Source: Psammoneis japonica | Lineage: Eukaryota | Assembly: GCA_008632985.1 (NCBI GenBank) | Contig: QPGO01000016.1 | Span: 220,840 to 284,839 of the forward strand | Direction of reading: 5' to 3' | DNA length: 64,000 nucleotides | Shown: positions 1,249-57,296 of the stretch, piece by piece | How the letters are laid out: the number at the start of each line of letters is the position of its first letter | Position numbering within the stretch: the first letter of the stretch is position 1 | Notes under the pieces: generated by a model | Told to the model about the DNA's origin: nothing | Databases searched by the model: none | The model's input: only the letters and a program-made list of their open reading frames with translations | Program-made: the position numbers and the translations under genes

Positions 1249-1299
1249 AAAAAACTTTTCGATTATCCCCTTGTGCAGCCTTTTCCGTTCAATGCGAAT

Positions 1300-4200
1300 T
1301 TTTCGTAGCTTCGATGCAGCTTTGGGTGCAAAGAGCATTACTGTTCAATCCTCTGGACAAGGCAATCTCACCAACCTCACTTCAACCACGTGCCTAAACG
1401 CTGTTGGGTTGCATTTTTAATTCATTCACCAAAATTTGTTGTTCTATGCACTACACCAGCAATGTCTTTTCTACGAAAACGCAGAAAGCACGCCGTACCT
1501 TGCTGACAAGAAAATCTAAAACTGCATTGGTTTCAAGGATTTATTCTTTGGTTGCTTCGGGGATTGAATCCAAGACACTCTGGAACCTTGCAGCAACGTT
1601 CTCTTCTTTCTTCATGCTCACCAAGCATTGCCCAGAACCGGTTTCATCAATGCTCTTTGCAGCTTTTGGGCTGTTCTCAGCCCACATTGATTTTTCACAC
1701 AAGTCACTCAAGTCTTGCCTGATGGGAACACAGTGCTTCCATGGACTCGAGTTCATCATGCATGACACCAATCTGTGAAATGGAAAGACACAGAGAACAA
1801 GCAATGGCAAGTTGCAAAACACTCCTGACTCTGTGATCATCAGGGGCCAGTGTCTGGTTGCACCCCAGTCATTCCTCCTCTTTTTTGCCCTTGGCTTTGG
1901 TCAGAAAATCTGCTTTTTGAACACCAGCATCATTCCACTGCACATCTTCCAGCACAAGCCTCTCCTCATGTTGCATAAAAAAAAGCACTCTGCAAAGCTC
2001 CAGCTGATGTTTGCAATGAGCCACATCCTGAGCTGTCCTCCTGCAGCCATTTTTAGACTGCTCCTCAGCATCTAACCATGTTCTCATTGACCCACTCATT
2101 GCCATCTCAAGCACCATCAAGCATGCTGGCTCTGGGTCATCCCTGCAACGTTGACCCACACATCATGAGATGCCTCTTGCTTGTCTTCTTGCAAAACGAC
2201 AAGTTTGTCAAAGGCACACACAGTTGATGCAGCTTTTGTTCAAAGTGCCAGTGGCACATGAGGGCTTGGAACATGCCAACAAGAAGTTGAGCTTGTTTTG
2301 CGGTGTTTGTGGCTGTGTGAATGACAGGACAGCAGGAGCTGCAGGTGCTCTGTTCCAGCCCAACAAGTGCACTGCATCTGAGTTGAGCAAAAGGGTCATT
2401 CCTGGGGCAATGGCTTTGGTGTGGCTCACACACCAGGCTCAAAGGCACTGCACTTGGCTGACAGCCATTTTCCCAGAAACAACCATGCTGTTGCAAAGCT
2501 GTGTCACCCATTTGGTTGATTGTGAAGGTGCCACTTGTGCACCATTTGAGGAGCATCAAGTTTTCTGCATAAAGGTGGGACTGGAAGGGGGGGGGGTGCT
2601 TGCAGCTGCACTCTCTGCTGCCCATGCCTGGGATGTGCTGTCAAAAGCAGGGTTGCGTTTGGAGCCATTGATGTCTGCAATCAGCAAGTCTGAGGGTCCC
2701 ATCTGACCCAGCATTTGAGGGTCTAGTGTGCACTCATTGATGCACCCATCAGCTTGTGACTCTAACACAGATCTTGTGCACAGAGCTCTGTCAACTCTGT
2801 GCCACCTGACCCTGCTTCTTGGAGCTGGCACAGGCTGGGATGTTCAACTGGTTGAACATCTGAGCCTCTGTGGGGCTGGAGCACATTGCTGTCCACACCT
2901 GCACACCTGCCAACAACTGTGACCTCAGCACACCAAAGGTTCTTCTGCTGCAACAGAGACCACCTGCTTTTGGTGCTTGTGTCACATGCTTTGAGCCTCT
3001 GGCACCATCAAAACAGTGCCATTGCTGCACACTGCCTTCTTCCTCTCTGTTCCCCACACAAAATTGGCAAAACACTCAACTGCATTGCTGACAATGGATG
3101 AGGGCTTCAATTGGGTGCCTTGTCACTCTGCTTGTGTTTTCACCTCACACCACAAAGTCGGTTGTTGCTCTTTGTGCTTGAAAAAGTCTGCAGGCCAACT
3201 GCTCAGCTGTTTTTCCACAAGTTTGCTTGCTCTGTGAGACATGGGCTTGCTCACTTTCAGTTTTTGTGCACTCCAAGCCTCAAACAAGGTGACAGGCAGC
3301 CTTTTGTTCTCCACTCTTGGTCAACTTTGTTGGCTCCAACATTTCCTAAAAGTTTGAGATCATGTTCACAAGTCGTCAGGGCAAGTGCCACCAAAAACCT
3401 CAAAAACTGACATCATGATGGGCAAGCAAAGCAGATTTTGGTCTTTTCATAAAAAAACAAGTAGATTTCTTGCTTGTCACTGCTTGATTTCTCCTGCAGG
3501 AGGCAATCTCAGCACAGTCAATCTCTCAGCACAGTCTGTGCATTGCTCCAACTGGTGGAAGAGAGAAGAGTGGTTCAACTTCAGATTGAGAGCTGAGGAT
3601 CCCAACTGCAGAGTGAGAGGACACCCTGCTGATGCTTGCATGCAACCAACCCAACAACTGCAAGCCAAGGATGTTGAGGGTCTCCAGGGGAACCCGGGGA
3701 ACACTTTGAGGATGATGATTGAGTGTTGCAAGGCTTCTCTGGTGCAGCTGCACCCCCCCAGTTGCCAACCCAACAACTGCAGGCCCAGGGCATTGAAGGT
3801 CTCCAGCAGAACCTGGGAAACACTTTGAGAATTGTGGTGGAGTGCTGTTGGCTGCAAGGCTCATCTGGTGCAGTTGCGCCCCCCAGTCACTTCATCAATG
3901 CAAGAATGAGAGCCAAAATGCAAAAATCCAGAGTGAAGGGACACCCCAATGCAACCAACCAGCACAATGACTGCAGGCCAAGGGCACTGAAGGTCTCCAG
4001 CAGAGGAACCTGGAAAACACTTTGAGAATTGTGGTGGAGTGTTGCAAGGCTCATCGGGCGTGTCAGTGCCAGAACAAGAGCTGAGCTTTCCAGCTCCAGA
4101 GTGAAAGGACACCCTGATGCAGCCAACAACTGACACAACAATGGCAGGCAAAGGGAACACTTGAGATTGGTGGTGGAGCATTGCAAGTCTCATTTCGTGC

Positions 4201-5000
4201 AGTTGCGCGCCGCAGTCAATTCATCCATGTGCGCCAGAGTGACAGCTGAGTTTCCCACCCCAACTTGTCCAGAGTGAAAGAACACCCTGATGCAACCAAC
4301 CAACACAACAGCTGCAGGCTGATGGCATTGAAGGTCTTCAGTGGAGCCCAGGCAACATCTTGAGAACTGTGGTTGAGCGCTGCAAGGCCCATCTGGCACA
4401 GTTGTGCCCCCCGGTCATTTTGTCCACGTTGGAGCTCTGTGGGGCTCACAACTCCAGTGTGAAAGGAAATCCTGATGCAACCAACAAAGATGCCAGCTGC
4501 AGACTGAGGATGTCAATTGTGGTTGAGCACTGCAAGGCCCATCTGGCACAGTTGTGTGGAGTCAAGTTTCATCTTCATCACCTCGCCAGAAGGAGCTGGA
4601 CTTTTGGAGCTCCCCAACCTCCAGAATGAAAGGACACCCTGGCATGGCCACCAACACCAACACACCAGCTGCAGACTGATGGCATTGGGGGCTTTTGCTG
4701 GAACCCAGGGAACACTGAGAGCACTGCGTTGACAAAAGAAACAAGATGCGCGCCGGGTGCATCGCAGATTCTCTGCTTGGTCTGCAGCCTGCTCACCACC
4801 CATCTCAGAATCATGCATTGCACACTGGCACAGAAACCTGCGTGGATTCTGTGGGTTGTTCTTTGTGGGTTGTTGTGCCCCCCCCTTGTCCACTTGGAAG
4901 CTTGAGTCGGAACGATTGTCACATTGCCAGCAAGAAGTAGATTTTCAAGCTCGTCTCTGATCTGTCGGTGAGGCACTCGGTGATGCCGACATTTCCTCAC
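1300..5000. mobile_element. Decayed repeat/TE block 1 (CpG- and TpA-depleted)
   Basis: Few CG and TA, excess TG/CA, many overlapping Cys/His-rich Tyr-poor pseudo-ORFs. Contains a tandem array at 3600-4730. TE family not identifiable. Confidence 0.65.
3600..4730 (+). repeat. Diverged tandem array (~170-185 bp units), reverse-complement homolog of the 49.6-52.9 kb satellite
   Basis: Landmark GAGTGAAAGGACACCC-like motif at ~3611, 3931, 4099, 4272, 4457 and 4624. Recurrent AACACTTTGAGAATTGTGGTGGAGTGTTGCAAGGC-like motif. Confidence 0.85.
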
Positions 5001-5914
5001 ACACCATCCCGCTCAGGGGTGCACTGACCGACACCGAAATTTGCAACTGAACCGCAATGAGCAAGGCCATGATGGCGACAAATGGATCTGATCATGACTG
5101 CGATTCTTGAAAGAGATTCTTGTCAATTGGATGTCTGTGCTTAGAAGTGGTAACCCAAGCAACAATGTATGTGCCAATTGGTGGCACCAACCCCGCGTGA
5201 TCAGAAGATCGCAGCTCGCAGCGCAATAAAGGTGCCCTGGTCTCGATTCGAACCACCTCTTCACATTTATCTTTAGACACGGCTGCCATTGCTAATTGTG
5301 TTTCTCCCTTGTCTGCTCCCTTGTGTGACAGGACGTAAATTTCGATTCGCCGACCAACATTGACAATTGTGTGCATCGCATTGCGTGCTGGTATCACTGG
5401 AGCGGCCTCATCAATGAGCACAATAGCGGAATTGGCGTGAGCTTCGTGACTTTTTTGAGGAAAACGAACAGGAAGTTAGTTCCCTTCTGGCTCAATCCAA
5501 TGTGCAGGAGGCGGCCGTCGCTCGGGCAGACGCAACAGCTTTGGTGGCAGGGATGACACGTGGTGTTTATCCGAAATATGTGTATAGCAAGCGGCATGCA
5601 CTTTCTTCCTTCCAATATGTAGGGAGGGGGTGCGCAAGCATGTGTTTCGAAACGCATGCATCCTACTCTACTGTAGGTGTACCCCACCGGAAAGAAGTAC
5701 TCTAGCTAGGCTTGTGTTCGAACCACCAATCAAAAGCGCTCTCGTCGGAGCGTACAGAGGAAACATACCGGTTTGAAATTTTCGGTTCTTACGCATACGG
5801 CTTATCTTTCCAAGAGGGATGGGTCGGAAGCAGATCCAAAAGCGTGCGTGATCATTGCCACGTGGCTTTCACATGCTGGAGAGAAAAGGATAGTCTCCAC
5901 GGGCGGTGTGAACC

Positions 5915-8338
5915 ATGACACAACTTTTGTTTGGATACCACGGCATGCTTCTCCGACGGTCAATCTCGTTTCTACTGGCTAACCGGTGGGCCAACTGGGG
6001 AATCCGTGTAGCTGTGCATGACCACCCCAGGCATCAGCTTCTGGATCCAATTGCCTCCTCCTCCACCACCACCCTCCTTGGTCATGCCTCTGAGAAAAAT
6101 CTCTTACAAAAGGACGAAGAAGAGTCCCGCCTCTTGGAGTTGATAGATTCATCGAACGAAAAACGGATGCTGTCGTCTCAAATACTTCCTTCCTATCAAC
6201 AACGCTTTTCTATACCATTAGATTACAAGAGCAAAGGGTTCAAAAGTCTTGGACAGTATCTCAAACAGTTCCCAAATATTTCCATCCGAAGGGAGCAAGG
6301 TGATAATGTTTTTGTCGCGAGCTGTTGAACCTAGTGAGATATGTCGTTCGACGGAGTCGAGGATTCTCGAGTTGATAGATTCTGCCAACGGGAAGAAGCT
6401 TTTATTTCACAAACTTCTTCCGCTCTACGAAAAGCGGTATTCTGAAACTTTGGATTACAGGAGCAAAGGATTCAAAATTCTTTCAGAATATCTTGCGCAC
6501 TATAAGACCATACAGATGCGAGAGGAGAAGGGTAACAAGGTCCTTTCTCGTGCACCGGCCAATCCCGGAATCAATGGTACGTCTTGTGATTTGATGAGCA
6601 ATATATCAAAGAAACACGGGGTGCTATATGTAGACTCAATTGATCAGCTCGAAAAGCTCCAGGCGGTTTTCCCGTTTGACCCGCTTGCTTCAACTCCCAG
6701 TGGCGTGGTTTCGAACGGGCTCGAGACAGTTGTAGCTATAGACTGTGAAGGCGTACCAGAAAATCTTTATCTCGTTCAAGTTGCAGTGTCAGAAGACCTC
6801 GTATATGTATTCGATGGGGTCGAGTTAGGAGAACGCGAACTCATTCATTTCTTATCCAGGATGCTCAGTGACCCGAAATTACAAAGCTCATGCATGACTG
6901 TCACAAAGATTCCATCGCCTTACAACACAGCGGGTTGCATCTATCCGGAACTTTGGACAGTCAGCTTGCAATGGAAGAGCATACTGGAAGCATTCACATT
7001 GGACTCAACCAAATGCTCTCCATTCTAGGTCTGGAGACGAACGATTGAAATTACGGATGAAGGCGCAAGTTGAAGGTGGGAGAGGCTTTGCCAGTCGCCC
7101 CCTATCAAGAGAACTTTTACAATATGCAGTAGACGATGTCAGGCTTTTGCTCAAGGCAGCACCAGGTTTGCAGCGCCTTCTTGGTGAGAGTTGGAGCTTC
7201 TTGCGACGAGCTTCAGATGAGCGAGCGCGTAACACGAAAAAATGGGCGGCCGAGCGCATTGCTTGTTTTGACGGGGCCAATCAAAATCGCGTCGCATCTT
7301 TAGCACTTTTGAATGAGCTTCGCCCATCGAAAGTAAGGCTTCCGCGACCTATTGAAGTTAAATCAGATATTGGTTCGATGCTGAGCCTTCTACCGCAGGA
7401 CATTGTTGGTGATCTAATGCCTTTCGCCGAAGATCTTACAGAGATTCAGTTGGATGTTGGCCGAAGGCCAATAGCATGGTGCGACAGGCTTAAACAAGAT
7501 TTAGGTAGCAATGATCGAATGGTTTCGACTATAGAGCTGGAAAACATCGCGAAGAGTGTTGGACGTTTTGGATCTAATAATCGTGCTGCAATGGAAGGGC
7601 AGCTACACCGAATTAGCGCCATCAGAAATTTATCCGACGAGATAATTGGACTTACGCTCAGGGTTGGAAGGCAAGTTATGGGGGTCACTGAAACAATTTT
7701 GGATTTATTAGACGACGAATCGGAGCCTTCGATCCTGTTTCTCGGTAAACCTGGTAGCTCAAAGACTACGATAATTCGTGAGATTGCAAACATACTGGCA
7801 GAGCAGTCAAATGTGTGCGTGGTTGATACTAGTAATGAAATCGCAGGCGATGGCGATATGCCCCATGAATGCATCGGCAAAGCCCGACGAATGATGGTTC
7901 CTTTTCTTAAGCAGAAAAGCGTGATGATTGAGTGTGTTCAGAATCATACGCCACACGCGATGGTAATTGACGAAATTGGTAGGCCAAAAGAGGTGAAGGC
8001 GGCCAAGACCTGTAAAAATCGCGGTGTCCGGCTTATCGCCTCGGTACATGGCGGGGCCTTCGACAGCTTGTAGACAACTCCGATCTGTGTGGTCTCGTCG
8101 GCGGTGTAAAGGAAGTGATTCTCAGCGATTTGATGGCCGACATTCGAGGCTCCAGAAATTGGTACGAGAGCGGGCTGAGCCTCCTATTTTCGATGTAGTG
8201 GTTGAGATTCTACACAGAGACGAATGGCGAGTGGTGACGAACACTGCTAAAGCAGTCGATGATATTTTGAAAGGGAACAAGTATCTGTCACAAGTGCGGA
8301 AGCGAGATCCATTCCGAGTAGAAATTGAACGCTCTTAA
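5915..8338 (+). CDS. 2x LOTUS/OST-HTH + DEDDy 3'-5' exonuclease + Ycf45/SpoIIIAA-like P-loop ATPase fusion (frameshifted: pseudogene or assembly errors)
   Basis: Two repeats of YQQRFSIPLDYKSKGFKSL / YEKRYSETLDYRSKGFKIL. Exonuclease motifs VAIDCEG, KLMHDC, TLDSQL and QYAVDDV. ATPase motifs LHRISAIRN, GLTLRVGR, GKPGSSKTT, VVDTSNEIAGDGD and QNHTPHAMVIDEIG. Indels near 6310, 6876, 7040, 8055 and 8145. Confidence 0.8.
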
Positions 8339-8429
8339 TTAGACTTCATTGAAGAGAAACTCTGCCATTTAAATTCTAGAAAGATCGAGAAATGATCCAA
8401 ACGATGAATTGTCACCGCAATTTGTCGCA

Positions 8430-9650
8430 GTCGACCGGTTGGTCTCGCCCTGGGTTTGCACCCTTTGGCACTCAGGACAAATTGATGAGTCAAACGGAAT
8501 GAACAAGGAGTGCAAACAACCGCCAGTCATTCAAAAACAAAGAAAGCTTGAGTTCGCTCTTTCAGCCAAGTCTTGGGGGTCCATTGCACTTGTGCCACTT
8601 GCCTCCTGGTGCATTCCCAGATGAAAGGGACTGGTTGCTGGATGTTGGCAGCTGCAGAGTTTCAACTTCAACAGCTCGCTGAAAAAGCCCAGCCACCATG
8701 GGGTTGACCACAAACAAAATTTTGTTTGGGCCATCAGAGTGGCAAAAGTCGCAGCAGCTCAAAAAAGGCACTCACACTGGTGGTGAATGGCTTCACAATT
8801 GTCAAAACTGTCTTCTGGTCAAAAAGGCAAAAAAAAATGATTCTCAGCTGCCACGACAACAAACTGCGCTGCTTTGGCTCAGACAAGCAGAGAAGGAGCA
8901 ACTTCACAAAACTTCTGCTGAACTTTGTTGTTGATCACATTTCCAGCAGAAAGACATGCTGGCATGGGGCAAAAGAGGTCTTGGCTGGCACACACAGTGC
9001 TCAAGATGCTGTGGGACATTGCACGCAATTGCTTGCAAAGCCAACCCCACGTGCACAGAGCCCACATCAACACAGATGACGCACCCAGTCACAAAAGTTG
9101 CCAGCTCAAAACCAAGTTTGAGATGGTTTGCAGGATGGCCAGCAGCAAAAATTAGCTGCAAAAAAGCTTGCTCTCCCTTTTGGCATGAAACAAGCAAAAG
9201 GTGTTGTGTGGTGTGGTGCATTGAGGGAAGAAGGAGCTGGTGTGCCAACTGTGTGACAAGCAACTGGCCTGGCAACAAAGACACGCAGAGATGGTGCCAC
9301 TGTGAAGCTCCAGCAAAATTTGACAATTCTGCTCTTTGCAGACATGCAAAATGGAAGTGTGTGTGGCAGTGCATTTTGTCAGCTCCAGAAAACACCAGCA
9401 AATGACCCGAGCGGGGCTTTCTGTGCCGAGCGACAATGTCAACCCACACACCATCTTGCACCAGGACTGGTGTCACACCACCTTTGTGTCCCTGATTTGT
9501 GGTCCTTTGAGCCCATTGTGGAGTCGTCCGCATGCAACACACTCCATCACAGCATTCTGGCGGCCGCCTGCCCCCACAGCTCCATCATCTTCTAAATTTC
9601 GGACTCCTCTTTGTTGCTGTTGGAAAAAATCGAAAAACACGTTCAATGGA
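8430..9650. mobile_element. Decayed repeat/TE block 2
   Basis: Same CG/TA depletion and TG/CA excess, followed by an AT-rich stretch at 9660-9770. Confidence 0.6.
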
Positions 9651-9960
9651 CATTGATGTTTATGCATTTATAATTTAAAAATGCATCTAATAAAACATTC
9701 GATCAAAAAAGGGATAATAGACACTTTAACGTTATACACACAAAATAAAGAATATATAAAAAGGTGGGATTCCGTTGTCACAATTTCCGTTGAAGAATTT
9801 CTGGCGGCGCGGGAAGTGCACTCGCAAATTTTCAGACGGTCGAGGGGCGCGCACGCATGCACCACGCAATTGCACCAGTCATTTTTTTTGTGGTGCACTG
9901 CATGCATCACTGCAGAGAGAGCGTGTATGCATACCGTAGCTTCTTGTTTCAGTCAAAAAC

Positions 9961-11600
9961 GATGCAAACAATATATACGATGAAAAGAAGAAGAGGAAGA
10001 AGAATGCCTTATTCTCAAAGCAGAGGGTCGCGGTTTCTTGATGGCTCACCAGAATCATCATCCTCAGCGAGACAACATACACGACCGCGTCTCAATTTTT
10101 CGGTGTTCGCTTTGCTTTGCTTTTGTTGTCTCGAGAGCGTCTCTTGTTATTCGCATGTATCCCCACGTAATGAGCTATCGAATCTGAAACAAGGCAATGC
10201 TCTTGTCAGTACATCTAGAAAGAATGCAATACGAGGAGAGCGACGACTGTCCCCGGGAGGACGACGAGGGCTGCAGCAGGACAACGATAACAACAAGAAG
10301 AATGACGACAAGAACAAAAACAACAAAACACCTCCACCATCGCCCCCACCGACAATGCAACCTACGACTCGTCAACCTACAATAGAGCCAACATACTATC
10401 CAACATACTATCCAACAGCAGAGCCCACGAGTTCACCGACCGCGTCTCCGACAGTCGAGCCTCTGAATGCACCGTTTTCCGTTCAATTTTCGCTTTCACG
10501 ACCCGATGGGTCGCTGACTGCCGAGCAAGTAGAACAAGGAAACGAGGCCAACCTGACACAATCCGTATTCAATGCACTACTCAATGTCCTTTGTTTGGAA
10601 AAAGACACGGTAGTAGTCGCGGAACAAGACAATAAGAATGGCCCAAATGTCTGTTTTCAGACGCGTAGTATACCGCGACAGAGCGAAGATCGACAGGGCA
10701 AGACCATTCTTTTGACCAATCAAGAAGAATCGTATACTGTACGAAATGAACAATCCGGTGACGTCACGTGGGTAAACTGGGATGTGTCCTATATTGCGCT
10801 ACAAGTTGGAGACAAGTACTTGGATGAAATGGAGGAAGTGGAGGCTGGTGGCCCAACTAGTAGCCATGGCAGCAGTGCCGTGGCGCTCATGGAAAAGTCC
10901 GTACAAGAGACACTCAATAACGATATTGAAGAAGGATCCTTCTTGGCCAATGGAAGAAATCCAAGTGAGCGTCGTTGGAAACGAAATGGTAACATTTACC
11001 GGACGATTACTACTACGATGACGATGACGACGAGCTTGAACCGATTGATCCGGATTTCTGGCATGCTACACGCATTGCTGGCTTTGCGCTCTTGATCTTT
11101 TGTGTCGTCTCGTTATGTATCTGACAAGGCTTTCCGCACGACGCAAAAAGAAAAAAGCCAGGGAAGCGCTTTCGGACAGTGATCCTCAATTTCTCCACAC
11201 TGAAGAAGGCTTGCACGATATGCTGATTCAATCGAGGTTCAACAAGGGTGGAAGTGGTGAGGGTTCGAATCAAGCAATTGCCAAGGACGAAGACACCCTG
11301 ACTACGACTCCTGTCAGCTCATCCGATGATTCATCACCCAAGCAAGAAAGAGTTTACCCGAGACAACCGCTACAACGACGGCCCCAAGCAGAAGCCAAGA
11401 GACCCGAACCTCCTTCGTCGTTGACTAGCTCCATCATGGACCCATCTTCGTGGGGCTTTTCTTCCTTACTCGGACCCATGCATGATGATGATGATCATGA
11501 TACAGGTTCTATCATCCCAATGGATTGTGGCGGATCGTCCATGCAAAGTATCTTGCCGGATTGGATGGCACTATCAGCGGCTGAACAAAAAAAGGAATGA
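9961..11600 (+). CDS. Single-pass membrane protein with RXL motifs and Pro/Thr linker (frameshifted); paralog of 19139..20578
   Basis: Hydrophobic segment FSVFALLCFCCL, then ERRL..RRGLQ and a PT-rich linker. After frameshifts (~10945, ~10998, ~11108) it reads IDPDFWHATRIAGFALL (TM) and LHTEEGLHDML. Start codon uncertain. Confidence 0.65.
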
Positions 11601-11654
11601 TTTTGACACCAGTATCATCACTTGTTATTTGCTATGTAGTGGAGAGAGCATTCA

Positions 11655-11867
11655 CTGTACCTTTCGTTTTTGAAGATGCATGACGTTTGCTGAATTCAGG
11701 ATCTGTATATCCTCTAAATGACGACGAGCTTAGATCATACGTCATAGCATTTGGAAAGCTTTTACCGTACCTTTCGTTTTTCAGGATGCATCACGTTCGC
11801 TAGAAGAGTAAGCCTTTCAGTATCAGTATATCCTAGACGACGACGAGGTTAGATCATACGTCATAGC
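11655..11867 (+). repeat. Imperfect intergenic direct repeat, 2 x ~100 bp
   Basis: GTACCTTTCGTTTTT...GATGCAT...GTATATCCT...GACGACGAG.TTAGATCATACGTCATAGC occurs at ~11655-11748 and ~11765-11867. Confidence 0.85.
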
Positions 11868-12233
11868 TATCCCCCCCCCTAACAACTACAATGTGTTGAG
11901 TGGCGTCGCGCTTCGCCCAAAGAAAGGTCAGAAATCTCTCCGTCTCGAGGAGCTCATGGAGGTTTCTAAATAGAAGCTACAACATGAGACTGCCACTGGT
12001 CAACCCTTAGTTACTTCGTAGCTATTCTACTCTCTAGCTAGCTAGATTGCCCCCTCTTCGTGGTCCTCGGATCGCGGCGACGTTCGGCGATGTTCACCCA
12101 CACGCGCGCACGGCGATGATCGGTGATCGGATGGTCTGTCGGAAATGCACTCGAAAACGCTTCAACACAAAAGATACGTTTTCAGTTTGACATCCATCTC
12201 TCCACATTGTTGTAACCGCAATAAATCATCATC

Positions 12234-13422
12234 ATGAGTTCCATTGGTTTAATTGGTGTGATTGGTGCCACAGGGGCTCAAGGAGGAAGCCTGGTGGATG
12301 CGGCCCTAAAGGGCAATCAAAAAGTGCGAGCCTTTACTCGCGATACTTCCAAAGAAAAGGCTGTAGCTCTCAAGGATGCCGGTGCAGAAGTAGTCGCCTT
12401 GGATTTGGATACGCCCGAAACTATGGAGAAGGCTTTCGAAGGCGTTACGCACTTGTTCGTTGTGTAAGTGAAGGAATCTTTGTTGTCGTGACTTGTGAAG
12501 AAGTCTGATTCAATCCGCATGTTGTGGTTTTTGGATTCTCCCTTTTCTGCCATATCTTTACATCTATCTATGCTTACTTCTCTCTCTTCATTGATTGAAT
12601 TGTAAAATGGAATACCTATAGGACGAACTTTTGGGAGAGGTACGTAGTAGTAATGGCAACCAGGCTATTGTTGTCGCTGCCTCAAAGAAAAGTATCACTC
12701 ACATTGGATCCGCTGATCTTCTTTCCTCCACTCATAGCATGTCTCCCGCCAAGGAAAAGGAGCAAGTTCAGGCCGTAGTGAAAGCCGCGGAAGCCGCAGG
12801 TGTCAAGCATTACGTCTGGTCTACGTTGGAGAACTCCAAGCCATACTACGATGCACTTCCCGAAGACAAGCGCGTTCCCAAATTGACCGGAGGCTACTAT
12901 GTGCCCCACTATGATGCCAAGGGAGAAGCGAACGCTTTCTTTCCCAAGGAGAAGACTACCTTCCTTTATACGACCTTTTATTTGGATAACTTCTACAACT
13001 TTGGTATGGTTAGTAACGGTGTCTTGTGCAACAATGTGCCACAGGACAAGCCGTACCCCGTCATGGCGGCGGCGGACATTGGCACGTGCGCGTACGGTAT
13101 CTTCGCGGCGGACAAGACTTACCTTGGGAAGGAAGTGTACGTGACCGGGGAAGTTATGACCTTTGGTGAAGTCATGAAGATTGTATCCGAGGTTACTGGT
13201 AAGGAGTACAAGCACGCGACTGTGGACCGCGCCACCTATGCTGGATTCGGCTTCCCCGGTGCCGACGATTTGGCCAACATGTTTGACTACATGTCTAGCG
13301 ACCCGAGTGTCCTGAAGAACCATACCGTGGCGGCGTCCAAAGAGCTCAATCCCGAGCTCCAGACAGTCAAGCAATGGGCCGAAACCAACAAAGAGGCCTT
13401 GTTGAAGGTCGGACCCGAATAA
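12234..13422 (+). CDS. NmrA-like NAD(P)-binding protein (NMRAL1/HSCARG-like), 3 exons
   Basis: GATGAQGGS Rossmann motif, VWSTLE, VPHYDAKGEAN and FGFPGADDLANMF. Exons 12234-12463, 12622-12639 and 12738-13422 with GT..AG introns restore FVVTNFWESMSP. Confidence 0.92.
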
Positions 13423-13569
13423 AGCTAAGTTTTAAACTCGGAACGGTCCAACTTGCAAGTTGAGACAGGTGATGAACGTGAGATCTAGCCAGATAAAACG
13501 AATGAAAAGAAATGAACGTAAACCTCTTCAAGTAGGGAACTTCTCATATCTCAGCCTGTTGAACACTTA

Positions 13570-26269: not shown

Positions 26270-26319
26270 TCCAATATCGTGACGGGATGGACCAACTAGT
26301 CGCTGGCGCGGAGCTAATC

Positions 26320-35972: not shown

Positions 35973-35978
35973 AATAGT

Positions 35979-47357: not shown

Positions 47358-48159
47358 TATTTGCAGCCGTAGCTACTGGTGGCCATTTTACTTCTTCTTT
47401 TGGAGTGCAATGAGGGGTCACAAAGTCACAAAGAGGGCGGTGAAAGCATTACTTTTGGATTTTGTTTGACGTGAACCTACTATGTACAGTTCTATGTTCT
47501 ATTTTATTTTACAATGGTTGAAGACGTCAATGACTTATGACTGTGACCGCCATCAACGACTGAAACGATTGAACAACCAACGCGAACCCAATCAAAAATT
47601 TCGAGGTTCAAATCAAGAATGGAGCTCACTTTATTCTCGTTCTTACACTGACAAGAACTTCTTGTTCCTGTTAAGTCTTTGGCTCCAGCTCATCCATGTC
47701 ACCTTTGGCACATGTTCCTGTCACTTCTTGTTTCTTCACAATGATTGGCCTCCTTGTTGCTTGGCCTGTTCCAGCGAATGAATGCAGACACAGCATCGTG
47801 GCTGGTGTCACAATGCTCTTGCCCTTGTCTTTACGATGCACTCATTTCTGTGTAGCAGCTCCCACAAGTTTGCAAGCCAATCAGGCTTTCTTGTCCTGTG
47901 CTCCCCACACGTTCCATGCACTGACCAAGACAGACCACTCCGCCAGGATTTGCTCGATCCCCGCGAACCGACACAGCCACATCGACACAACTGTGTCTGT
48001 TCATCCACTCGAAACATCCTCTCATAGAGAGCCAAAACACAAACCCAATTTGCTGCCAGCCAATCTGGCTTGGGAGGTCACAAGGTGTGAGTGCGAGTTG
48101 CAAGCCCTGGACCTTGGCTGCAAAGGACCATCATCGCCGAAAGACAAATGAACATGGCT

Positions 48160-48678
48160 GCCAATGCTTTTCACCTGTCACAAACTTTGTCAACGGATCC
48201 ACCAAATTTGTCTCTGCATCTTCCTTTCCATCTCTCATCATTCTGGCTGCAACTGCCTCTCTCACTGTGCGACAATTGACTGCGTTGTGTGCTTCTTGTG
48301 CAGCGCAGATTCCGGAGTGCTGACATTCTTCACCACAACATGGTTGTCACAAAACACGCTCGCCGGTCCATCCAATGGTGCTCCAAACATGCACAACTTG
48401 TGATGCAAAGCAACAATCATGTCCTCACAGGTGCGCATTGCAACCAGTTCACTGCCAAATGCAGAAGACTCAACCGCATTCTGCCGTTTGCTGAACCACA
48501 TGATCGGAGAATTGTTCACAAAGACAACAACGCCAGAGTGTGACCTGTGCATGACAATGTTTCCGGCATGATTCACATCAATGAAAGCATGCACAGTTGC
48601 TGGGTTTCCACACAGCTTGGGCATCTCAGGCGGCAACTCTTCTTTGATGTTGCCATGGAATTTGACCCAACATGTCAA
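48160..48678 (-). mobile_element. Ty1/copia (CoDi-like) RNase H relic
   Basis: FIDVNHAGN..RSHSG..PIMWFSKRQNAVESSAFGSELVAM..VFCDN..KKH, then after a frameshift NAVNCRTVREAVAA..GKEDAETNLVDPLTK. Confidence 0.92.
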
Positions 48679-49569
48679 AAAAGGTGATTGTTAGACGGCG
48701 GGTGACGTTTGGGGAAAGAGGCACCCGGTGCAAACAAACAAACCTTTCTTGATTTCACACAAACAAAACAATGATTTGCACATCAATTTTTGCCGGCTCT
48801 CATCATCTGTGCACATCATTTGCTCTTTTGCATGACATTGCAGCCTCACTGAGCATTCAAAGATGTTTGCAAAACGCCCCTGCTTGTTGCTTGGCATGGC
48901 TTTGTTGATGAGAAATGACACCAAGAGGTTGCAAGAGTGGCGTGATGGGTGTTGTCATCCAAAAAAAATCTTGTGTTTGTCTGTGTGTGTGCAACTTGGC
49001 ACTTCTTCTTGTTCATGGAAGACCAACAGTGTGCAAAAAGTCACAGTCATTAGAACAGACTTTTTGCTGACTTTGACAGGTCATGCCAGTCAAAGTCACT
49101 TGCAGCGCTGCAGCTGGTCAAGAGCAATGATGAACAATCAGAAGTCAAAGTCAGGTACGCAGCAGTCAGTCACCTCTCATGGTGTTCAGTCAGCAAACTG
49201 ACTGACACTCAGCCAGCAAACTGACTGACACACATCACTTGTCAAGGCCATCTGAAACTTGTTTCTGCTCTGAACAAGAAGGAGTGTGAGTGAGCACAAT
49301 TCATTGTGCAAAACTTCCACAAGCTGTGTGGCAATTGCACAAAAATTGACTCAGGTCTTGTTTGTTGTCAAAATCAAGCTCAAAACAACCACGCCAATTT
49401 TGCTCTTTGTTTGTCGCACTGATCCAGCACATCCATTGTTGTCATTTGTCTTTTCAAACACAGTCATGTGGATGGTTGCACACCTTCAATTTCTTTGTTT
49501 TCTTGTCAAAATCTCATCCACAGTTGATGCACTTCTTGTTTCAAAGCCAGCTCCACCATTCTGTGGCAC

Positions 49570-52500
49570 TCTCAACGACAGCTCTTGAAAAGTTTCATCT
49601 CTGGGGTCTCCCAAAGAAGCCTCTCAGTGCCTTTTGAATGCAGTTGTTGGGTTGGTTGGTGCACCCCCCATGGTGTCCTTTCACTGTGGGCCAAGGCATT
49701 GCTTTGCTGCAAAATTGCACTCATGAAGTGCTTCCACTGCGGACTTTGGATTTCAAGCCTCGCCCTTGGCTCTGTGTGAAGTGACATGAGGTCACAGCTG
49801 AGCCAGGAGGGTGGCCTTTCAACTCTCAACCACAGCTCTTAAAGTTTCAACTGGGGTCCACTGTGGACACCCAGCACCTTTGGATGGCAGTGGTTTGGTT
49901 TGTTTGTGCATTCACTCATGGTGTCGTTCCACTGCAGAGCTGGGGCTTCAAGTCCCCCCCCCCCTTGGCTTTGTGTGAAGTGACATGTGGGGCCACAGCT
50001 GAGCCAGAGTGGCCTTGCAACTCTTCATCACAGCTCTTGAAGTGTTGTCTGGGGTCCAGAAAAGACACTTGGTGCCTTGTGACTGCAGTTCTTGGGTTGG
50101 CAGGTGCACTCATGGTGTCCCTTCACTGAAGAACTGGGGCTCAAGCCCCCCCTCTGGCTTTGTGCAAAGTGACATGAGGCCACAGCTGAGCCAGGGTGGC
50201 CTTGCAACTCTTTGCCACAGCTCTTGGAGAGTGTTGCCTGGGGCCCAGAAAAGGCACTTGATGCCTTGTGACTGCCGTTGTTGGGTTGGCAGGTGCATTC
50301 ATGGCACCCCTTCACTGCAGAAAAGGGGTTCAAGTCTCACCCTTGGCTTTGTGCAAAGCGACACGGGGCCACAGATGAGCCAGGGTGGCCTTGCAACTCT
50401 CAACCCCAGCTCTTAAAGTGTTGCCTGGGGTCCACCAAAGACACTCAACACCTTGTGCCTGCAGCTGTTGGGTTGGCAGGTGCACTCATGGTGTCCCTTC
50501 ACTGCAGAACTGGGGCTCAAGTCTCGCCCTTGGCTTTGTGCAAAGTGACATGGGACCACAGCTGAGCCAGGGTGGCCTTGCAACTCTCAACCCCAGCTCT
50601 CAAAGTGTCACCTGAGGGGGTCCACCACACGTGCTCAACACCTTGTGACTGTGGTTGTTGGGTTGGCAGGTGCACTCGTGGTGTCCCTTCACCACAGAGC
50701 TGTGCGGGGGGTTCAAATCTCTCACCCTTGGCTTTGTGCAAAGTGACATGGGGCCACAGCTGAGCCAGGGCAGCCTTGCAAATCTCAACCATGGCTCTTG
50801 GAGTGTTGCCTGGGGTCCACCACACATGCTCAACACCTTGTGACTGTGGTTGCTGGGTTGGCAGGTGCACCCGTGGTGTCCCTTCACCGCAGAACTGGTG
50901 CTCAAGTCTCGCCCTTGGCTTTGTGCAAAGTGACATGCTGGGGCCACATCTGAGCCAGGGTGGCCTTGCAACTCTTAACCCCAGCTCTCAAAGTGTTGCC
51001 TCTGGGGTCCACCAAAGACACTCAACACCTTGTGACTGCAGCTGTTGGACTGGCAAGTGCGTTCATGGCATCCCTTCACTGCAGAAAAGGGGTTCAAGTC
51101 TCACCCTTGGCTTTGTTCAAAGTGACATGGGGCCACAGCTGAGCCAGGGTGGCCTTGCAACTCTCAACCCCAGCTCTTGGGGTGTTGACTGGCATCCTCC
51201 AAAGACACTCAACACCTTGTGACTGCAGCTGTTGGGCTGACAAGTGCATTCATGGCATCCCTTCACTGCAGAAAAGGGGTTCAAGTCTCACCCTCAGCTT
51301 TGTTCAAAGTGACATGGGGCCACAGCTGAGCCAGGGTGGCCTTGCAACTCTTAACCCCAGCTCTTAAAGTGTTGCCTGGGGTCCACCAAAGACACTCAAC
51401 ACCTTGTGACTGCAGCTGTTGGGCTGGCAAGTGCATTCATGGCATCCCTTCACTGCAGAAAAGGGGTTCAAGTCTCACCCTTGGCTTTGTTCAAAGTCGC
51501 ACGGGGCCACAGCTGAGCCAGGGTGGCCTTGCAAACCTCAACCATGTCTCTTGAAGTGTCACCTGGGGCCCACCACATGTGCTCAGCACCTTGTGGTGAC
51601 TGTGGTTGTTGGGTTGGCAGGTGCACTCATGGTGTCCCTTCACCACAGAACTGTGCGGGGGTTTCAAATCTCTCACCCTTGGCTTTGTGCAAAGTGACAT
51701 GGGGCCACAGCTGAGCCAGGGCAGCCTTGCAAATCTCAACCATGGCTCTTGGAGTGTCGCCTGGGGTCCACCACACATGCTCAACACCATGTGACTGTGG
51801 TTTGGTGGGTTGACAGGTGCACTCACAGTGTCCCTTCACCACAGAACTGGTGCTCAAGTCTCGCCCTTGGCTTTGTGCAAAGTGACATGCTGGGGCCACA
51901 TCTGAGCCAGGGTGGCCTTGCAACTCTTAACCCCAGCTCTCAAAGTGTTGCCTCTGGGGTCCACCAGAGACTTTCAACACCTCGTGACTGCAGCTGTTGG
52001 ACTGGCAAGTGCGTTCATGGCATCCCTTCACTGCAGAAAAGGGGTTCAAGTCTCACCCTTGGCTTTGTGCAAAGTGACATGGGGCCACAGCTCAGCCAGG
52101 GTGGCCTTGAAACTCTCAGCCATGTCTCTCAAAGTGTCACCTGGGGCCCACCACATGTGCTCAACACCTTGTGAAGGTGGTTGTTGGGTTGGCAGGTGCA
52201 CTCATGGTGTCCCTTCACTGCAGAACCTGGGCTCAAGTCTCGCCCTTGGCTTGACATGAGGAGAGACAGGTGGCATTGCAGCACTTGACCATGGCTCTTA
52301 AAATGTTCACTGGGGTCCACCAAAGACACTCAACACCTTGTGACTGCAGTTGTTGGGTTGTCAGTCAGGCACATTCATGGCGTCCCTTTGCTGAAAAATT
52401 TGGGCTAAAGTCTCAGCACCCTTGTGTTTGTGTGAAGTGTCGCGGGGTCTCAGTTGCACCACGGCGGCTTTTCAGCTCCCAACCGCGGCTCTGAAAGTGT

Positions 52501-52890
52501 CACCTGGGGTTCACCAAAGACAGTCAATGCCTTTTGACAGCAGTGGTTGGGAGGGCAGGTGAGACTTGAACCCCACTTCATTGCAAAACTGGGGTTGAAG
52601 TCTCGCCCTTGGCTTTGTGCAAAGTGACATGGGGCCACAGCTGAGGCAGCCAGGGTGGTCTTGCAACTCTCAACCATGGCTCTTAAAGTGTTGCCTGGGG
52701 TCCACCAAAGATGCTCAACACCTTGTGACTGCAGTTTTTGGGTTGGCAGGTGCACATTCATGGCATCTCATTGCTGCAGAGCTGGGGTTCAAGTTTCACC
52801 CTCAGCCAGGGTGGCCTTGAAACTGTTGCCCATGGCTCTTAAAGTGCTGCCTGGGGTCCACCAAAGATGCTCAATGCCTTGTGACTTTCG
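49570..52890 (+). repeat. Satellite array, about 17 monomers of 187-198 bp
   Basis: CCAGGG landmark at 50191, 50380, 50567, 50765, 50955, 51144, 51331, 51518, 51716, 51907 and 52096. Diverged monomers at both edges. Confidence 0.95.
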
Positions 52891-53775
52891 CAAAGTTGCA
52901 AAGCAGGGTGATGAAAGCATTTTGTTTGATGTGAACCTGGGCAATTCTGTGTGACATTTTAACGTTTAAAGATGTCAATTGTTTTGTCCAACACTGAATG
53001 TGGAATGCAAAACACATGATGAGATGGTGTTTTCCAGATTTGAACTGACCTTTTCAGAGCATTTGCAACTCGGGCAGTGAGAAAATGAGTGGATCACAAA
53101 TTGCTTTGTTTTCTAAGAGGGGAGAGAGTTGAAGATGACCAGACTCCAACTCAACTTGGGCTGGATGATCAGGGCCAAATTGAGATGTTGTGCTTGCAGC
53201 AACTGGGTGTCAGGTTTCAGTGCCAGATGTCCAAAAGCTCAGAGAACAGTGGCGGCTGTTTCTGAGCTGGGTGCTCTTGAGCATCAGTCGCAGCCATTTT
53301 GAAGCAACACCACCAGCATGAACGCACTTTGTTCTTGTTGCCTGTTTGCTGACTGGCTCAAATGGAGTGGACACAGAAACATTGTGTTGCATCTTCGGCT
53401 TTGTTGTTGAGACTGATCTTGAAAAGACGCTGCCACTCAAACTCAAGCACCAGCTTTGGGCACAAAAAATTCCATCCACCGCCTTCTTTGGTGGTCCCTG
53501 CCCCTGCATCTGGAGTGTCCTTGCCCACCCAAAAGATGACGGGGTTCTTTGGTGTGTGGTTTTGCGTGCTGAATGAAATGTGTGAGGAGATGGGCACACT
53601 CAGCTTCATGATGTGAGAGAAAAACAGGCAAGAGAAAAACAAACACTCTGTCTCTCACCAAGGCTGTGTTGAGGGGACTTGCCAACAAAGGAAAATGACA
53701 ACTCTTTTGCCACTGGCTTGCTCCTTCGGCTGTGGTCACTTGGCCAAAGCACTCCATTTTTCTCAATGATGCCTT

Positions 53776-54222
53776 GTGCAACATGCAGCCACCAATGAGA
53801 GTCAACGCATCACGGCGACGTGTTACAGCCTTTAAATGTCACAAAGGGCGTGACAAAAACAACCTTTTGTCTGCATGCATGCTTCATTGTGAATTCACAG
53901 CGGAGTGGTACATCGTGACCACTGGGCAGGAGGCCAGGGGTTCGAAACCCGAGTGGGAGTTGTCTGCAGCAACGTTGATCACTGTCGAACGCGTAAAACT
54001 CTGTGCAGTTCTGTATGTTCCTTCGTACGTACCCACACTGTTCCGCCAAAACCGTGCAGTGTCAGCACACGTCAGTAAAGAGCCGCATGGACGCGTGACA
54101 CATGGGGAGGAGTGCAACACACAGCCACTGATGAGAGTTAATGTATCACGGCGACGTGTTACAGCCTTTAAATGTCACAAAGGGCGTGACAAAAATGACC
54201 TTTTGTCTGCATGCACACTTCA
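53776..54222 (+). repeat. 111-bp direct repeats (53776-53886, 54112-54222) enclosing a tRNA-like sequence
   Basis: Gap-free alignment at offset 336. Confidence 0.92.
53891..53960 (+). mobile_element. tRNA-derived Pol III promoter / SINE-head-like element
   Basis: A-box-like CAGCGGAGTGG (53898) and B-box GGTTCGAAACC (53939) in a GGG-TTCGAAA-CCC T-arm. Acceptor and anticodon stems are poor. Confidence 0.6.
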
Positions 54223-55396
54223 CTTGCCCCCCCCCCCCGCCCCTTTGCCAAGGGTTTTCAGAAATGGCTGTGGGCTGGCAGATGAGCTGCTGCTTGCTGT
54301 GTGCAGCACCAACACACTCATCTCATGCTTGTCTGGTGGGCAACACTTGCTTGTTTCTTGCTTTCTGTGTCTCCCTCTGCACTGCCCCCCCCCCCCCCCC
54401 CCGCAAGCAGAGGAGTGCAGTTGCAGCTGGCTTGCTGACTGGCGCACACTTGTTGGTCTTGCTGATCTCTGATGAGAAATCACTGCATGGGTTGCAAGCA
54501 CATTTCTGTCACCACTGCCACCTTTGCCATGTGTCAACTGCGGCTGTGCAGAAACTGAAAAGCAAGTGCCAGACCCACAACTCAGCAGGAGCTGTGAGCG
54601 CAAGTTTGCCACATCGCCAACAATTGCCAGTGCATCCTTTGCTGCAACATGCCATCTGTCTGTCCTGCAAAGAACTGCCTTGCACCCCAGCACTCCAACA
54701 GCGGCACTTGTTCTCTCCAAAAAGAACAAACAACAAACCAATCACTCACAGGGTTTTTGCAGGTCTTTGATGCACCACAGAAAGTTGGTGCATCATGAGG
54801 CAGCCACAAAGCAGATCTGTGTGACACAGAAACAGCAGCACAGGCAAGCTCAGATGTGGCCAGTTCAGCGGCTGTGTCTGAGTGGCTTTGGAGGAGCATG
54901 TTCTTCAATTGAAAGTCGCTGAAGTTGTCACAAGTTTGCATTTGTGCTGCACTTGACAAAAGGCAAATGGCGCCTGCAGACTGGACAAAATGTGCAGGAG
55001 CTTTGACGGCATCATTTTTGTTGTTGCAAGGCAACAGAAGCTTTGGCAAAGATGTGGATGGTGGTTGTCATTGTCATGTTGCTGGGGCACCTGCTTGCTT
55101 CTCATGATGTTTTGTTGTGCTCTGGGCTGATGGAATCTCAAAGAGCATTTCAAGCTGGTGACATCTGTCATTGTTTGGCAGAAAAGACTCCAAAGCATTT
55201 GGGCATTGGGCCTCACATTTTTCACTGGTTGACCAGGGCAACCTTTCAGACCCGTTGTTCCCACCACCACCAAAGTGACCCCAAAGTTGACAAAGTCACC
55301 ACAGAGAGTGCAGAGCGGCACTTTGAGCATGGGCTGAGCTGGGAGGGGTGCTTTTCCACTCAGCTCACTGCACTCCAGGCAGTGGGGGGGGTGCCA

Positions 55397-55681
55397 TGTG
55401 TGTGAGCAGGGGAAAAGCCAGACAAGAAAAAAGCAGCACAAAAAGATGTTGTTTGTTGATGCCAAACAAATGACAAAATGAGCTCACACAGTTGAAATTT
55501 GCAGAGGAAGCACATCGCTGCTTGCACAACATGGGGGCATGTGTGTGAGCAGGGGCAAAGCCAGACAAGAAAAAAAGCAACACAAAAAGACATGTGTTGT
55601 TTGTTGACGTGCCAAACAAACAACAAAAAATGAGCTCACAGTTGAAATTTGTGGAGGAAGCACACCACTGCTTGTGCAACA
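55397..55681 (+). repeat. Imperfect tandem repeat, 2 x ~140 bp
   Basis: GTGTGTGAGCAGGGG.AAAGCCAGACAAGAAAAAA...TGAGCTCACA..GTTGAAATTTG..GAGGAAGCACA occurs twice. Confidence 0.88.
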
Positions 55682-57296
55682 CTGCTGCTCACCTCAGGTC
55701 AGGGCAGCCACCTCACTTTGCTCCTTTTGTTGGTTGTGGGGAAACTGCCCAGCAGTGTGCACGCATGAGGAGCTCACATGCAACGTCACCCACCAGCGGC
55801 GCAGGGGTGGAGCAGGGACAGATGTGGGAAGCAAGGGTGGAACTGAGTCATGCATGCAGGAAAAGGGGTGGGTTTCAGGTTGGGGTTGGAGAGTTGGGAT
55901 TGCAGTTTGGCAGAGCATTGGGTCAGTTGGTCAGCGAGCGATTTGGCAGTCACAAAGCTCAGGCTTTGAAGGCCCCGCTGCGATGGAGCCGAAGTGTGGT
56001 GGGCCAGGGGGCAGAATCATCATGCAGTGGACATGTTCTGCCAAGGGGCAGCAGCAGCAGCAGCAGCAGGGAGAATGGCAGACAGCGGCAGTTGGGTGCA
56101 GTCATGTGCTGCATGGGTGGCTGGATGTTGAAAGGAGGATTGAGCAGCCCAGAGAGGGGCTGGTGGAGCAGATGCGTTCCAGCCCCAGGTGGGACTCCGT
56201 GTGACATTGGGCCCGTGGAATTCTGCGTGCGAGCTCCGCAGCACAAGAATTTAATTGATGGATGCATTTGTCTTCAACATCAAATAAACGGCCAAGTTTG
56301 TGGTGCAATTTTGCCCCTTGCCACTCGACGTTTTTGCAAATGCACCTGCCCTGCGCGATTTTTAAGACATTGTAGAATCGCGCTGCAGCAACAAATGTCA
56401 AAAGTTTTTGGACGGATCGCTCAACAAGCACACCATAAAATGACACAAGATGTCGAAAAAATCACGTAGAAATCTACGTGCGCGACATACGACGTGATTC
56501 AAAAAACTGTCGATGTCACAGTTCAGCAGTGCGAGGTCCCACCTGGACCTGGAGCACGTCAGCAGGGGGATGGGGTGTTCTTGGTTGGCTTCGAAAAGAA
56601 GAAGAAGGTGGTGAGCGAAGCAGCCAGGGGCTCCCAGGTGGTCGACGGTGAAGGGAATGAGGTAAATGCCGGCGTCGTTGAGAGCAGATGTAAGGGTGGC
56701 TTCTCTGTGCGATCGACCACAGGCTCGAGATGTTCGTCAGAGTGGCTCTCTGCCTGCCGCCTGGGAGTGCCGCATCTCATTTTCGGAACATCACCGAACT
56801 TCGTTCATGTGCATACAATACACATACAATGTGGCGGGTCATTTTCACGTACTCGTATGTTTGAAATGTACAACATACATGCCTGAAAATATATAATGGA
56901 GCCCAAACCATTGATTTGGAAACGTGTTACGTCATCACTATCGAAAATATGTACTTTACTGGGGTACGTGGCACTGACCTCAACATTCTATGCAAATGCA
57001 TGTCGTACTTTTTGATCGTTGAATACTTCGTATGTACAATCATACATGAGAATGATACCGCAGTGATACAAGTGCGCACGCGAGAATTTGATTGGTTCGC
57101 ATTTGACACCTTGGTAGGTTTTGTACTGTGAGCTACGCAGGCTCATGAAAGTTCTGCGATCTTTTGCTAATGCGCCTGTCGTGCGTAGATTTTGTACCAA
57201 GCTCAACGGATTCAATCTCTCATCACAAACATCAAAATCAGCAGGCCATGGCCAAAGATTGAAACCGACCATTGTATTCCTGAATCGCCATTCACC

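Follow-up and report, generated by a model that had tools for sequence, protein, structure and literature searches.

In Neurospora and other ascomycetes, repeat-induced point mutation (RIP) inactivates mobile and repeated DNA through dense transitions, which form sharp tracts beside intact genes and create stop codons. RIP changes C to T, mostly at CpA, creating TpA, and it has no arm that converts A:T to G:C. It is limited to duplicated sequences, takes place before meiosis, and requires an enzyme of the RID/DNMT4 type. To our knowledge, all known targeted hypermutation of mobile DNA (fungal RIP and the animal cytosine deaminases) runs from C to T. Here, we describe a 64-kb window of nuclear DNA (the whole stretch analyzed, i.e., positions 220,840 to 284,839 of contig QPGO01000016.1) from the diatom Psammoneis japonica, in which eight sharply bounded blocks, together 21,376 bp, have lost most of their CG and TA dinucleotides and are rich in TG and CA. 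Inside these blocks, CG occurs 301 times (observed/expected ratio, o/e, 0.22), TA 59 times (0.05), TG 2441 times (1.74), and CA 2337 times (1.84), in agreement with an earlier note on this DNA. The blocks share with RIP the dense transitions in mobile or repeated DNA, the sharp tracts beside intact genes, and the newly made stops, whereas they gain CpA and TpG and lose TpA. A RIP-type dinucleotide test (CA/TG raised, TA lowered) and the polarity of the changes, from TA to CA/TG, both bear out the claim of that note that the direction is the opposite of RIP.

Other described systems each share something with these blocks. CpG hypermutation in basidiomycetes is specific for TCG, a rule that the blocks do not follow, as CG survival in them ranges from 0.14 to 0.52 with context. 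In Microbotryum and its relatives, the RIP-like process changes C to T at CpG-containing targets (PMC3318451, PMC5381629), and the blocks resemble it in the C-to-T change at CpG in mobile elements and in the depletion of CG; the portions of those papers drawn on here note no loss of TA. Decay of methylated CpG, as in vertebrates and in diatom mobile elements, which are CG-methylated through DNMT5a according to the portion of the source used here (PMC9998398), turns CG into TG/CA in silenced elements and proceeds more slowly in GC-rich contexts. The blocks carry that signature as well, namely in their low CG, in CG/TG/CA segregation within a satellite, and in eight polarized CG conversions of an element relic, and CG survived best in GC-rich contexts (GCGC 0.52 versus ACGA 0.14). 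Such decay, however, cannot remove TA and lowers GC content, whereas the blocks have 50% GC versus 47% outside, and TA drops from 0.59–0.74 to 0.05. The earlier argument that CG decay alone cannot account for the pattern thus stands.

The second phase of somatic hypermutation is the work of DNA polymerase eta (Pol eta) at the motif WA (W being A or T); AA is hit too, and transversions are made. The blocks are similar to it in combining C deamination with A-to-G changes at TA, and they differ in that AA stays intact, the changes being transitions at TA alone. APOBEC and ADAR enzymes act on one strand of complementary DNA (cDNA) or RNA and have other neighbor preferences, whereas in the blocks both strands are equally affected, a satellite is included, and copies diverge in place. 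The likeness to this editing of retroelements would lie in a hypermutation of mobile elements driven by deaminases (in the part of PMC4866542 that we rely on). Aberrant thymine excision by TDG/MBD4, finally, causes context-specific T-to-C changes opposite damaged adenine (PMC4041421) and is comparable in that a methylation-linked repair enzyme makes such changes; as far as the cited part of that paper goes, those changes fall at TpG/CpA and yield CpG, whereas the blocks change at TpA and lose CpG. In the literature searched, with subscription journals and supplements outside its scope, we found no paper on a joint loss of CG and TA in repeats of diatoms or other eukaryotes, although a description may exist. 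The process is a variant of targeted repeat hypermutation with methyl-CpG decay as one probable arm, and for the TpA arm we found no known counterpart.

The study covers this one window and one sample, for which three sequencing runs (X1, X2, and X3) are available. X1 was read as contigs; its platform is not on record, and it is possibly the source of the assembly or of its polishing rather than an independent replicate. Its single-copy depth is about 55, with copy number judged at a likeness of at least 85%. Blocks were called by a two-state segmentation of pyrimidine–purine (YR) steps, and a sliding composition profile was run as well. The segmentation yields eight blocks where the earlier note counted seven between 1300 and 56300; that range matches, and the count becomes seven if blocks 7 and 8, which are separated by an island of 382 bp, are merged. 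Outside the blocks, CG is found 2396 times (o/e 1.00) and TA 1748 times (0.59), with TG at 1.13 and CA at 1.18, so that the neighboring genes keep both dinucleotides, as had been claimed. At the outside rate about 880 TA would be expected in the blocks instead of 59. In the non-block DNA beyond long stop-free frames, which serves as a proxy for intergenic DNA, TA stands at 0.74 and CG at 1.0, meaning that block TA is some 15 times lower than intergenic TA, a comparison that the earlier note had proposed as a check. For single blocks, the Poisson log10 P at outside rates lies between −18 and −80 for TA and between −11 and −64 for CG, and the longest run free of TA measures 2083 bp in the blocks versus 204 bp outside. 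The loss of TA is even between blocks (o/e 0.00–0.08), whereas that of CG is variable (0.13–0.37).

Summed over the 16 edges, a single 50-bp bin takes CG per YR step from 0.267 down to 0.043 and TA per YR step from 0.117 down to 0.016, and the plateaus on either side are flat, without a gradient; as the edges were set by the segmentation, the step is partly there by construction, but the flat plateaus are not. The density of YR steps is the same inside and outside (0.240 versus 0.242), and the purine/pyrimidine k-mer frequencies match too, as expected from transitions confined to YR steps. The block sequence is complex and does not consist of simple repeats.

How much TA survives varies with the flanking bases. 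TA survival reaches 0.43 at TTAA, 0.21 at CTAA/TTAG, and 0.14 at CTAG, and is only 0–0.014 at ATAT, ATAC/GTAT, and GTAC, making R-TA-Y (purine-TA-pyrimidine) the preferred target. AA is not depleted (o/e 1.27 in blocks versus 1.15 outside), and other transitions are about as frequent as transversions inside the blocks. Both strands are equally affected, as can be seen from the similar counts of TG and CA, and a strand-run test showed no clear clustering of TG versus CA in the blocks (z −0.2 to −2.0). Consequently, a start of the change at the A and a start at the T of TA are indistinguishable from these data.

The direction of the changes could be read from a Ty1/copia-type RNase H relic in block 7, which matches the C-terminal part of copia-type polyproteins of 1300–1400 amino acids (E 1e-44). 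It contains no Tyr, and five of the six stops in the surrounding read-through of 310 residues are TGA. When compared with 84 homologues at 70 well-conserved columns, the relic has the conserved residue at 51 and another at 19. Of these 19 differences, 14 are single steps from CG (eight) or TA (six) to TG/CA, whereas the reverse direction explains one. The CG conversions turned, for example, Arg into His, Cys, or TGA; the TA conversions are Y100H, Y185H, V119A, V192A, T160A, and T165A, where Val became Ala twice by GTA to GCA and Thr became Ala twice through the T|A codon junction. A family-consensus test at the DNA level covers four TA and five CG columns only, and at all four TA columns the relic is converted. 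For the same RNase H domain, environmental loci were found with an alignment of eight sequences; of 502 relatives, the analysis retained the 80 best, a choice that favors intact copies. Among these 80, the median CG is 0.97 and the median TA 0.71, with TA at or above 0.5 in 76. Low TA is not native to the element family, and the possible refutation named in the earlier note, that intact copies are equally poor in TA, did not materialize.

Repeats within the blocks point the same way. Between the two 129-bp repeats of block 6 there are ten difference events (five CG-type, three TA-type, one TG versus CA, and one transversion), and between the 111-bp repeats at blocks 7 and 8 all seven events are YR-type (four TG versus CA, two TA, one CG). 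For these two youngest in-block duplicates combined, 16 of 17 events are thus YR-type and none is a non-YR transition, compared with 59 of 260 and 23 of 154 in normal paralogues. Among their palindromic site-copies, 22 of 48 were converted versus one other change in 384 site-copies. As duplicates with hardly any other change are already about half converted, the process is recent or ongoing. In an alignment of eleven monomers of the 187-bp satellite, 13 of the 19 variable YR sites have both TG and CA, implying a CG or TA ancestor with independent hits on the two strands. Nine sites still have CG and two still have TA, and at one of the latter the 11 copies include TA 2, TG 5, and CA 3. Differences of TG versus CA in older repeats are still about 15 times commoner than in normal paralogues. 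The hypermutation acted over a long time and very recently. Relic, satellites, and young duplicates agree on the polarity from TA to TG/CA that the earlier note had put forward.

Beyond the window, the database homologues P0220, P0251, and P0210 are nearly without Tyr; where Tyr is conserved they have His or Cys, where Arg is conserved they have His, Gln, or Trp, and they may belong to the Psammoneis genome itself. In the metagenome contigs L074 (1–1344) and L075 (1–1590), TA is about 0.25 and CG about 0.8, and Cys or His takes the place of the Tyr that is conserved in the LRYKL motif. These two contigs show 16 TG-versus-CA differences over 997 nucleotides; the figure is 0.16–0.53% in 8 control pairs (of 43). 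In L001 (1–2137) and L002 (1–2085), on the other hand, CG is 0.03–0.06 and TA about 0.4, with the Tyr codons kept. From these contrasts, the activities behind the loss of CG and the loss of TA look separable, and TA can be lost without need of CG loss.

Taking all of this together, we give a probability of roughly 0.6 to the reading that inserted repeat-type DNA was hypermutated in place at CpG and TpA by two activities. The block DNA (retrotransposon relic, satellites, and other inserts) was mutated after its arrival at the present sites, whereby CpG and TpA, the two self-complementary YR steps, became TpG/CpA on both strands equally and other dinucleotides were largely spared. Mutation ends within 50 bp of the flanking genes, and short stretches inside a block can escape it. 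Two separable activities would be aimed at the same silenced elements: a C-to-T change at CpG, for which deamination of 5-methylcytosine (5mC) would be the simplest reading, and a presumed A:T-to-G:C transition at TpA with a preference for R-TA-Y. The effect would be a permanent inactivation of the element, as codons for Tyr, Arg, and other residues are changed and CGA becomes TGA. For the chemistry of the TpA arm, we rank first, at well under even odds, a member of the deaminase superfamily that would be recruited to repeat chromatin and turn adenine in DNA into inosine at T-A-Y. A TadA-like DNA adenine deaminase, as put forward in the earlier note, is a possible candidate; the native substrate context of TadA is U-A-C. 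As to targeting, the step-like edges would fit a recognition of the element itself, by analogy with RIP, and a RID-like DNMT4 of unknown function occurs in many, or at least some, diatoms according to the cited part of PMC9998398.

Several points weigh against this reading. AT is also low in the blocks (o/e 0.72 versus 0.93 outside), GA/TC is slightly low, and CT/AG is slightly high; simulated conversion of normal window DNA reproduces the YR dinucleotides but leaves AT at 0.93 instead of 0.72, and the model of CG and TA conversion is incomplete in that respect. The conversion rate, put at about 235 times background with a lower bound of 42, comes from only 240 bp in two short duplicates and from one background event. 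Older repeats differ mostly in ordinary ways, with YR-type events making up 16 of 147 in the units of block 1 and 4 of 13 in a tandem repeat of block 8, and pairs of satellite copies show 424 YR-type differences versus 1477 others. Several intact loci also lack two or three of the four TA columns converted in the relic. Only parts of blocks 1, 6, and 7 can be traced to mobile elements or repeats, and much of the block DNA is single-copy in X1 at the threshold given above. Directly beside block 3, moreover, a high-copy stretch (16009–17342) has normal composition, meaning that repetition alone is no trigger. The label “repeat-targeted” of the earlier note is accordingly borne out only in part. 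Furthermore, targeting of silenced chromatin and every enzyme named here are what we infer, and we know of no natural DNA adenine deaminase in eukaryotes.

Two rival explanations would do away with a mutation process at these sites altogether. In one of them, modified bases in silenced DNA (5mC in CG, modified T or A in TA) were simply misread. Transitions of both kinds are known as basecalling errors at methylated motifs, matching the two conversions seen here, and all runs found stem from one sample; an artefact of basecalling or polishing had been named in the earlier note as a possible refutation. Short-read or HiFi chemistry, however, reads 5mC as C and N6-methyladenine as A. The X1 contig at 8373–9828 (1.46 kb) reproduces the assembly with 0 differences and spans both edges of block 2, the one at 976–4123 crosses the left edge of block 1 with 14 differing letters, and those at 4519–6532 and 11268–13902 cross block edges as well (the latter the left edge of block 3). 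Their depth of about 55 equals that of the flanking genes. Noisy long reads would not assemble into k-mer contigs that cross four block edges in this way, opposite-strand misreads would leave mixed columns and not the clean loss seen over 2083 bp, and the same substitutions recur in metagenome contigs of other projects (L074 and L075), all of which makes a technical origin highly improbable. All four checks that the earlier note had set out as possible refutations were made here, and none went against it. The other explanation, that an inserted element or virus had always avoided CG and TA or had been edited before integration, is the least probable of those we considered. Avoidance of CG and TA with an excess of TG and CA is known in RNA viruses (PMC3829696, as far as the part used here goes), but CG and TA are at normal levels in the intact relatives (again the best 80 of 502), and in-place duplicates differ almost solely at sites of the CG and TA type. 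In the relic, codons for conserved Tyr and Arg are gone and TGA stops have appeared, so that it is decaying rather than adapted. Moreover, a noncoding satellite is affected, and TG is about equal to CA, unlike the outcome of one-strand cDNA editing.

The remaining rivals concern the means by which the DNA was mutated. Since A to G on one strand equals T to C on the other, deamination of adenine cannot be separated from oxidation of thymine by sequence alone. In an oxidative route, a repeat-recruited dioxygenase of the TET/JBP type would oxidize 5mC in CpG and T in TpA; 5-formylcytosine (5fC) miscodes as T and 5-formyluracil as C, so that one enzyme family could make both conversions. Each target is the pyrimidine that opens a self-complementary YR step, both strands come out alike, and the loss of TA without loss of CG in L074 and L075 would fit if that organism lacked 5mC. 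Thymine is hydroxylated at TpA in kinetoplastid telomere repeats and also in dinoflagellates, a Naegleria TET oxidizes T too, and 5-formyluracil pairs with G. On the other hand, 5-hydroxymethyluracil and 5fC are weakly mutagenic, whereas the rate here is at least 40 times background, and the slowest context, T-TA (TTAA), is that of base J in telomere repeats. We therefore consider the oxidative route unlikely as a whole, although thymine oxidation at TpA ranks second to adenine deamination and is nearly as likely. Error-prone patch repair, in which T:G mismatches feed a noncanonical mismatch repair and Pol eta makes WA-to-WG errors, had been a candidate of the earlier note and would have the merit of coupling the losses of CG and TA in the same regions while yielding A to G at TA. 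Yet AA should then fall together with TA, 95% of which is gone; nor do the parity of other transitions with transversions in the blocks, the young duplicates, or the contigs L074 and L075, which lost most TA with CG still at 0.8, agree with it, and we regard it as very unlikely.

A further possibility concerns the trigger, namely that homology sensing, perhaps by way of the RID-like DNMT4, picks out duplicated DNA and that the duplicated segment alone is mutated, as in RIP. The edge steps of less than 50 bp look as if the element defines the target, satellites and a retrotransposon relic are affected, and a loss of about 10% of the bases in each copy would bring the copies under 85% likeness, so that they look single-copy; diatom DNMT4, moreover, groups with RID in the cited part of PMC9998398. 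However, the tandem paralogues beside blocks 4 and 5 (84.5% and 82% identity) are unmutated, the high-copy stretch keeps its normal composition at 25–40 times single-copy depth, and parts of the blocks are single-copy. The satellites and element relics that are hit speak for dependence on duplication, and the other observations speak against it; we hold such a trigger to be rather unlikely. In our view, hypermutation in place at CpG and TpA by two activities, one of them probably methyl-CpG deamination, continues to explain the blocks best.

The make-up of the blocks was traced in several ways, and the features are collected in Table 1. With 18 full-length polyproteins searched against the window by tblastn, only the RNase H piece matched and no further pieces of the element were found. 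The degenerate units of block 1 match the region 50.1–52.7 kb at 70–77%, with a summed X1 depth of 825–1397 versus about 55 for single-copy DNA. Of the 63 open reading frames of at least 150 amino acids, 21 fall in the blocks, which make up one third of the window; long, overlapping false frames occur on both strands of the blocks (e.g., 42004–44569 and 53732–56469) because TAA and TAG have vanished. Twenty of the 21 block frames were scanned against Pfam and none gave a family, and a six-frame Pfam scan of blocks 1, 6, 7, and 8 (minus the satellite core 49801–52799) returned no credible domain, block 6 giving no Pfam domain at all. A 381-residue open frame in block 6 is not protein-like, with low recognition and no usable match in an atlas look-up. 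A search in the purine/pyrimidine alphabet matched no block to normal DNA elsewhere in the window, ruling out that the blocks are hypermutated copies of neighboring window DNA.

Table 1. Blocks, repeats, and flanking paralogues in the window, with CG and TA given as o/e unless stated otherwise
Feature	Position	Strand	CG	TA	Remarks
Block 1	1565–4904		0.13	0.04	Satellite-like units at about 3640–4720
Degenerate tandem units	3640–4720	−			Block 1; inverted relatives of the 187-bp satellite of block 7
Block 2	8451–9559		0.25	0.01	One TA in 1109 bp
Block 3	13605–15635		0.18	0.08	
Tandem subtilase-gene paralogues	26040–28045 and 29824–31799				Flank block 4; 2 kb, 84.5% identity
Block 4	28091–29802		0.22	0.07	Between tandem subtilase-gene paralogues
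Tandem paralogues	35206–35977 and 37248–38018				Flank block 5; 0.8 kb, 82% identity
Block 5	36063–37188		0.19	Zero TA in 1126 bp	Between tandem paralogues
Block 6	41367–45277		0.37	0.05	129-bp direct repeats inside
129-bp direct repeat, left copy	41964–42092	+			Block 6; long terminal repeat-like
129-bp direct repeat, right copy	43779–43907	+			Block 6; 1.8 kb from left copy
Block 7	47646–53804		0.21	0.05	Copia relic and 187-bp satellite
Ty1/copia-type RNase H relic	48265–48690	−			Block 7; open piece of 142 codons
187-bp satellite	49752–52802	+			Block 7; about 16 copies
111-bp direct repeat, first copy	53776–53886	+			Right end of block 7; 336-bp period
Normal-composition island	53805–54186				382 bp between blocks 7 and 8
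111-bp direct repeat, second copy	54112–54222	+			Extends into block 8
Block 8	54187–56174		0.18	Zero TA in 1988 bp	

The island between blocks 7 and 8, which sits inside the largest hypermutated tract, contains a motif (GGTTCGAAACC) resembling an RNA polymerase III B box and, upstream of it, one like an A box. A search for tRNAs in it was negative, and there was no Rfam match at the gathering score or at E values up to 1. Within the 111-bp repeats, a 45-bp core keeps four CG and two TA in both copies, which, together with the island, suggests local protection. The island could be a bound or transcribed shielding element or a boundary element.

Outside the blocks lie genes for ordinary eukaryotic and plastid-related proteins, namely NMT, PRP38, CIA30, PAP-fibrillin, a mitochondrial carrier, and a subtilase. 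The best named matches of the NMT protein are proteins of raphid pennate diatoms with 64–66% identity, and unnamed matches reach up to 71%. X2 covers genes, at very uneven depth, and leaves the blocks within 1–20000 without cover; X3 gives no cover at all, and neither gap was used as evidence. One X2 contig skips 271 bases at 12464–12736. These observations point to transcripts as the source of X2 and to an intron located upstream of the NmrA-like open reading frame (12631–13422) and overlapping its 5′ end.

Both tandem paralogue pairs are unmutated and of normal composition, with transitions about as frequent as transversions; the subtilase pair shows ordinary divergence (133 transitions versus 126 transversions). 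Blocks 4 and 5, i.e., two of the eight, each fill exactly the space between tandem paralogues of 82–85% identity, which suggests a link between the insertions and the local duplication of genes, such as unequal exchange where elements had inserted. The high-copy stretch at 16009–17342 adjoins block 3 and has a summed X1 depth of 1300–2400. It holds an open reading frame (15964–17136, + strand) for a protein of 390 amino acids without a Pfam family and is either a multicopy gene family or a young element that escapes hypermutation.

For genome annotation, the signature described here creates false long open reading frames, hides old elements from repeat finders, and misleads gene finders in diatoms. 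A region-restricted removal of TpA at no less than 40 times background needs an activity that is unassigned to natural DNA-editing or repair systems. If that activity is enzymatic, the enzyme would amount to a natural DNA editor, A to G or T to C, that acts in a two-base context, and hence be of interest for base editing. It is possible, if somewhat short of even odds, that a genome-defense mutator targeted to chromatin or elements exists in diatoms, and perhaps also in other protists (see L074 and L075), and converts A:T to G:C at TpA by a chemistry new to any organism. If true, this would be the first natural A-to-G hypermutator acting on DNA and a counterpart of RIP in the opposite direction, with a deaminase or thymine oxidizer working beside CpG deamination to erase both self-complementary YpR steps from mobile DNA. 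The finding also bears on the control of the abundant copia-type elements in diatoms, which are major primary producers of the ocean.

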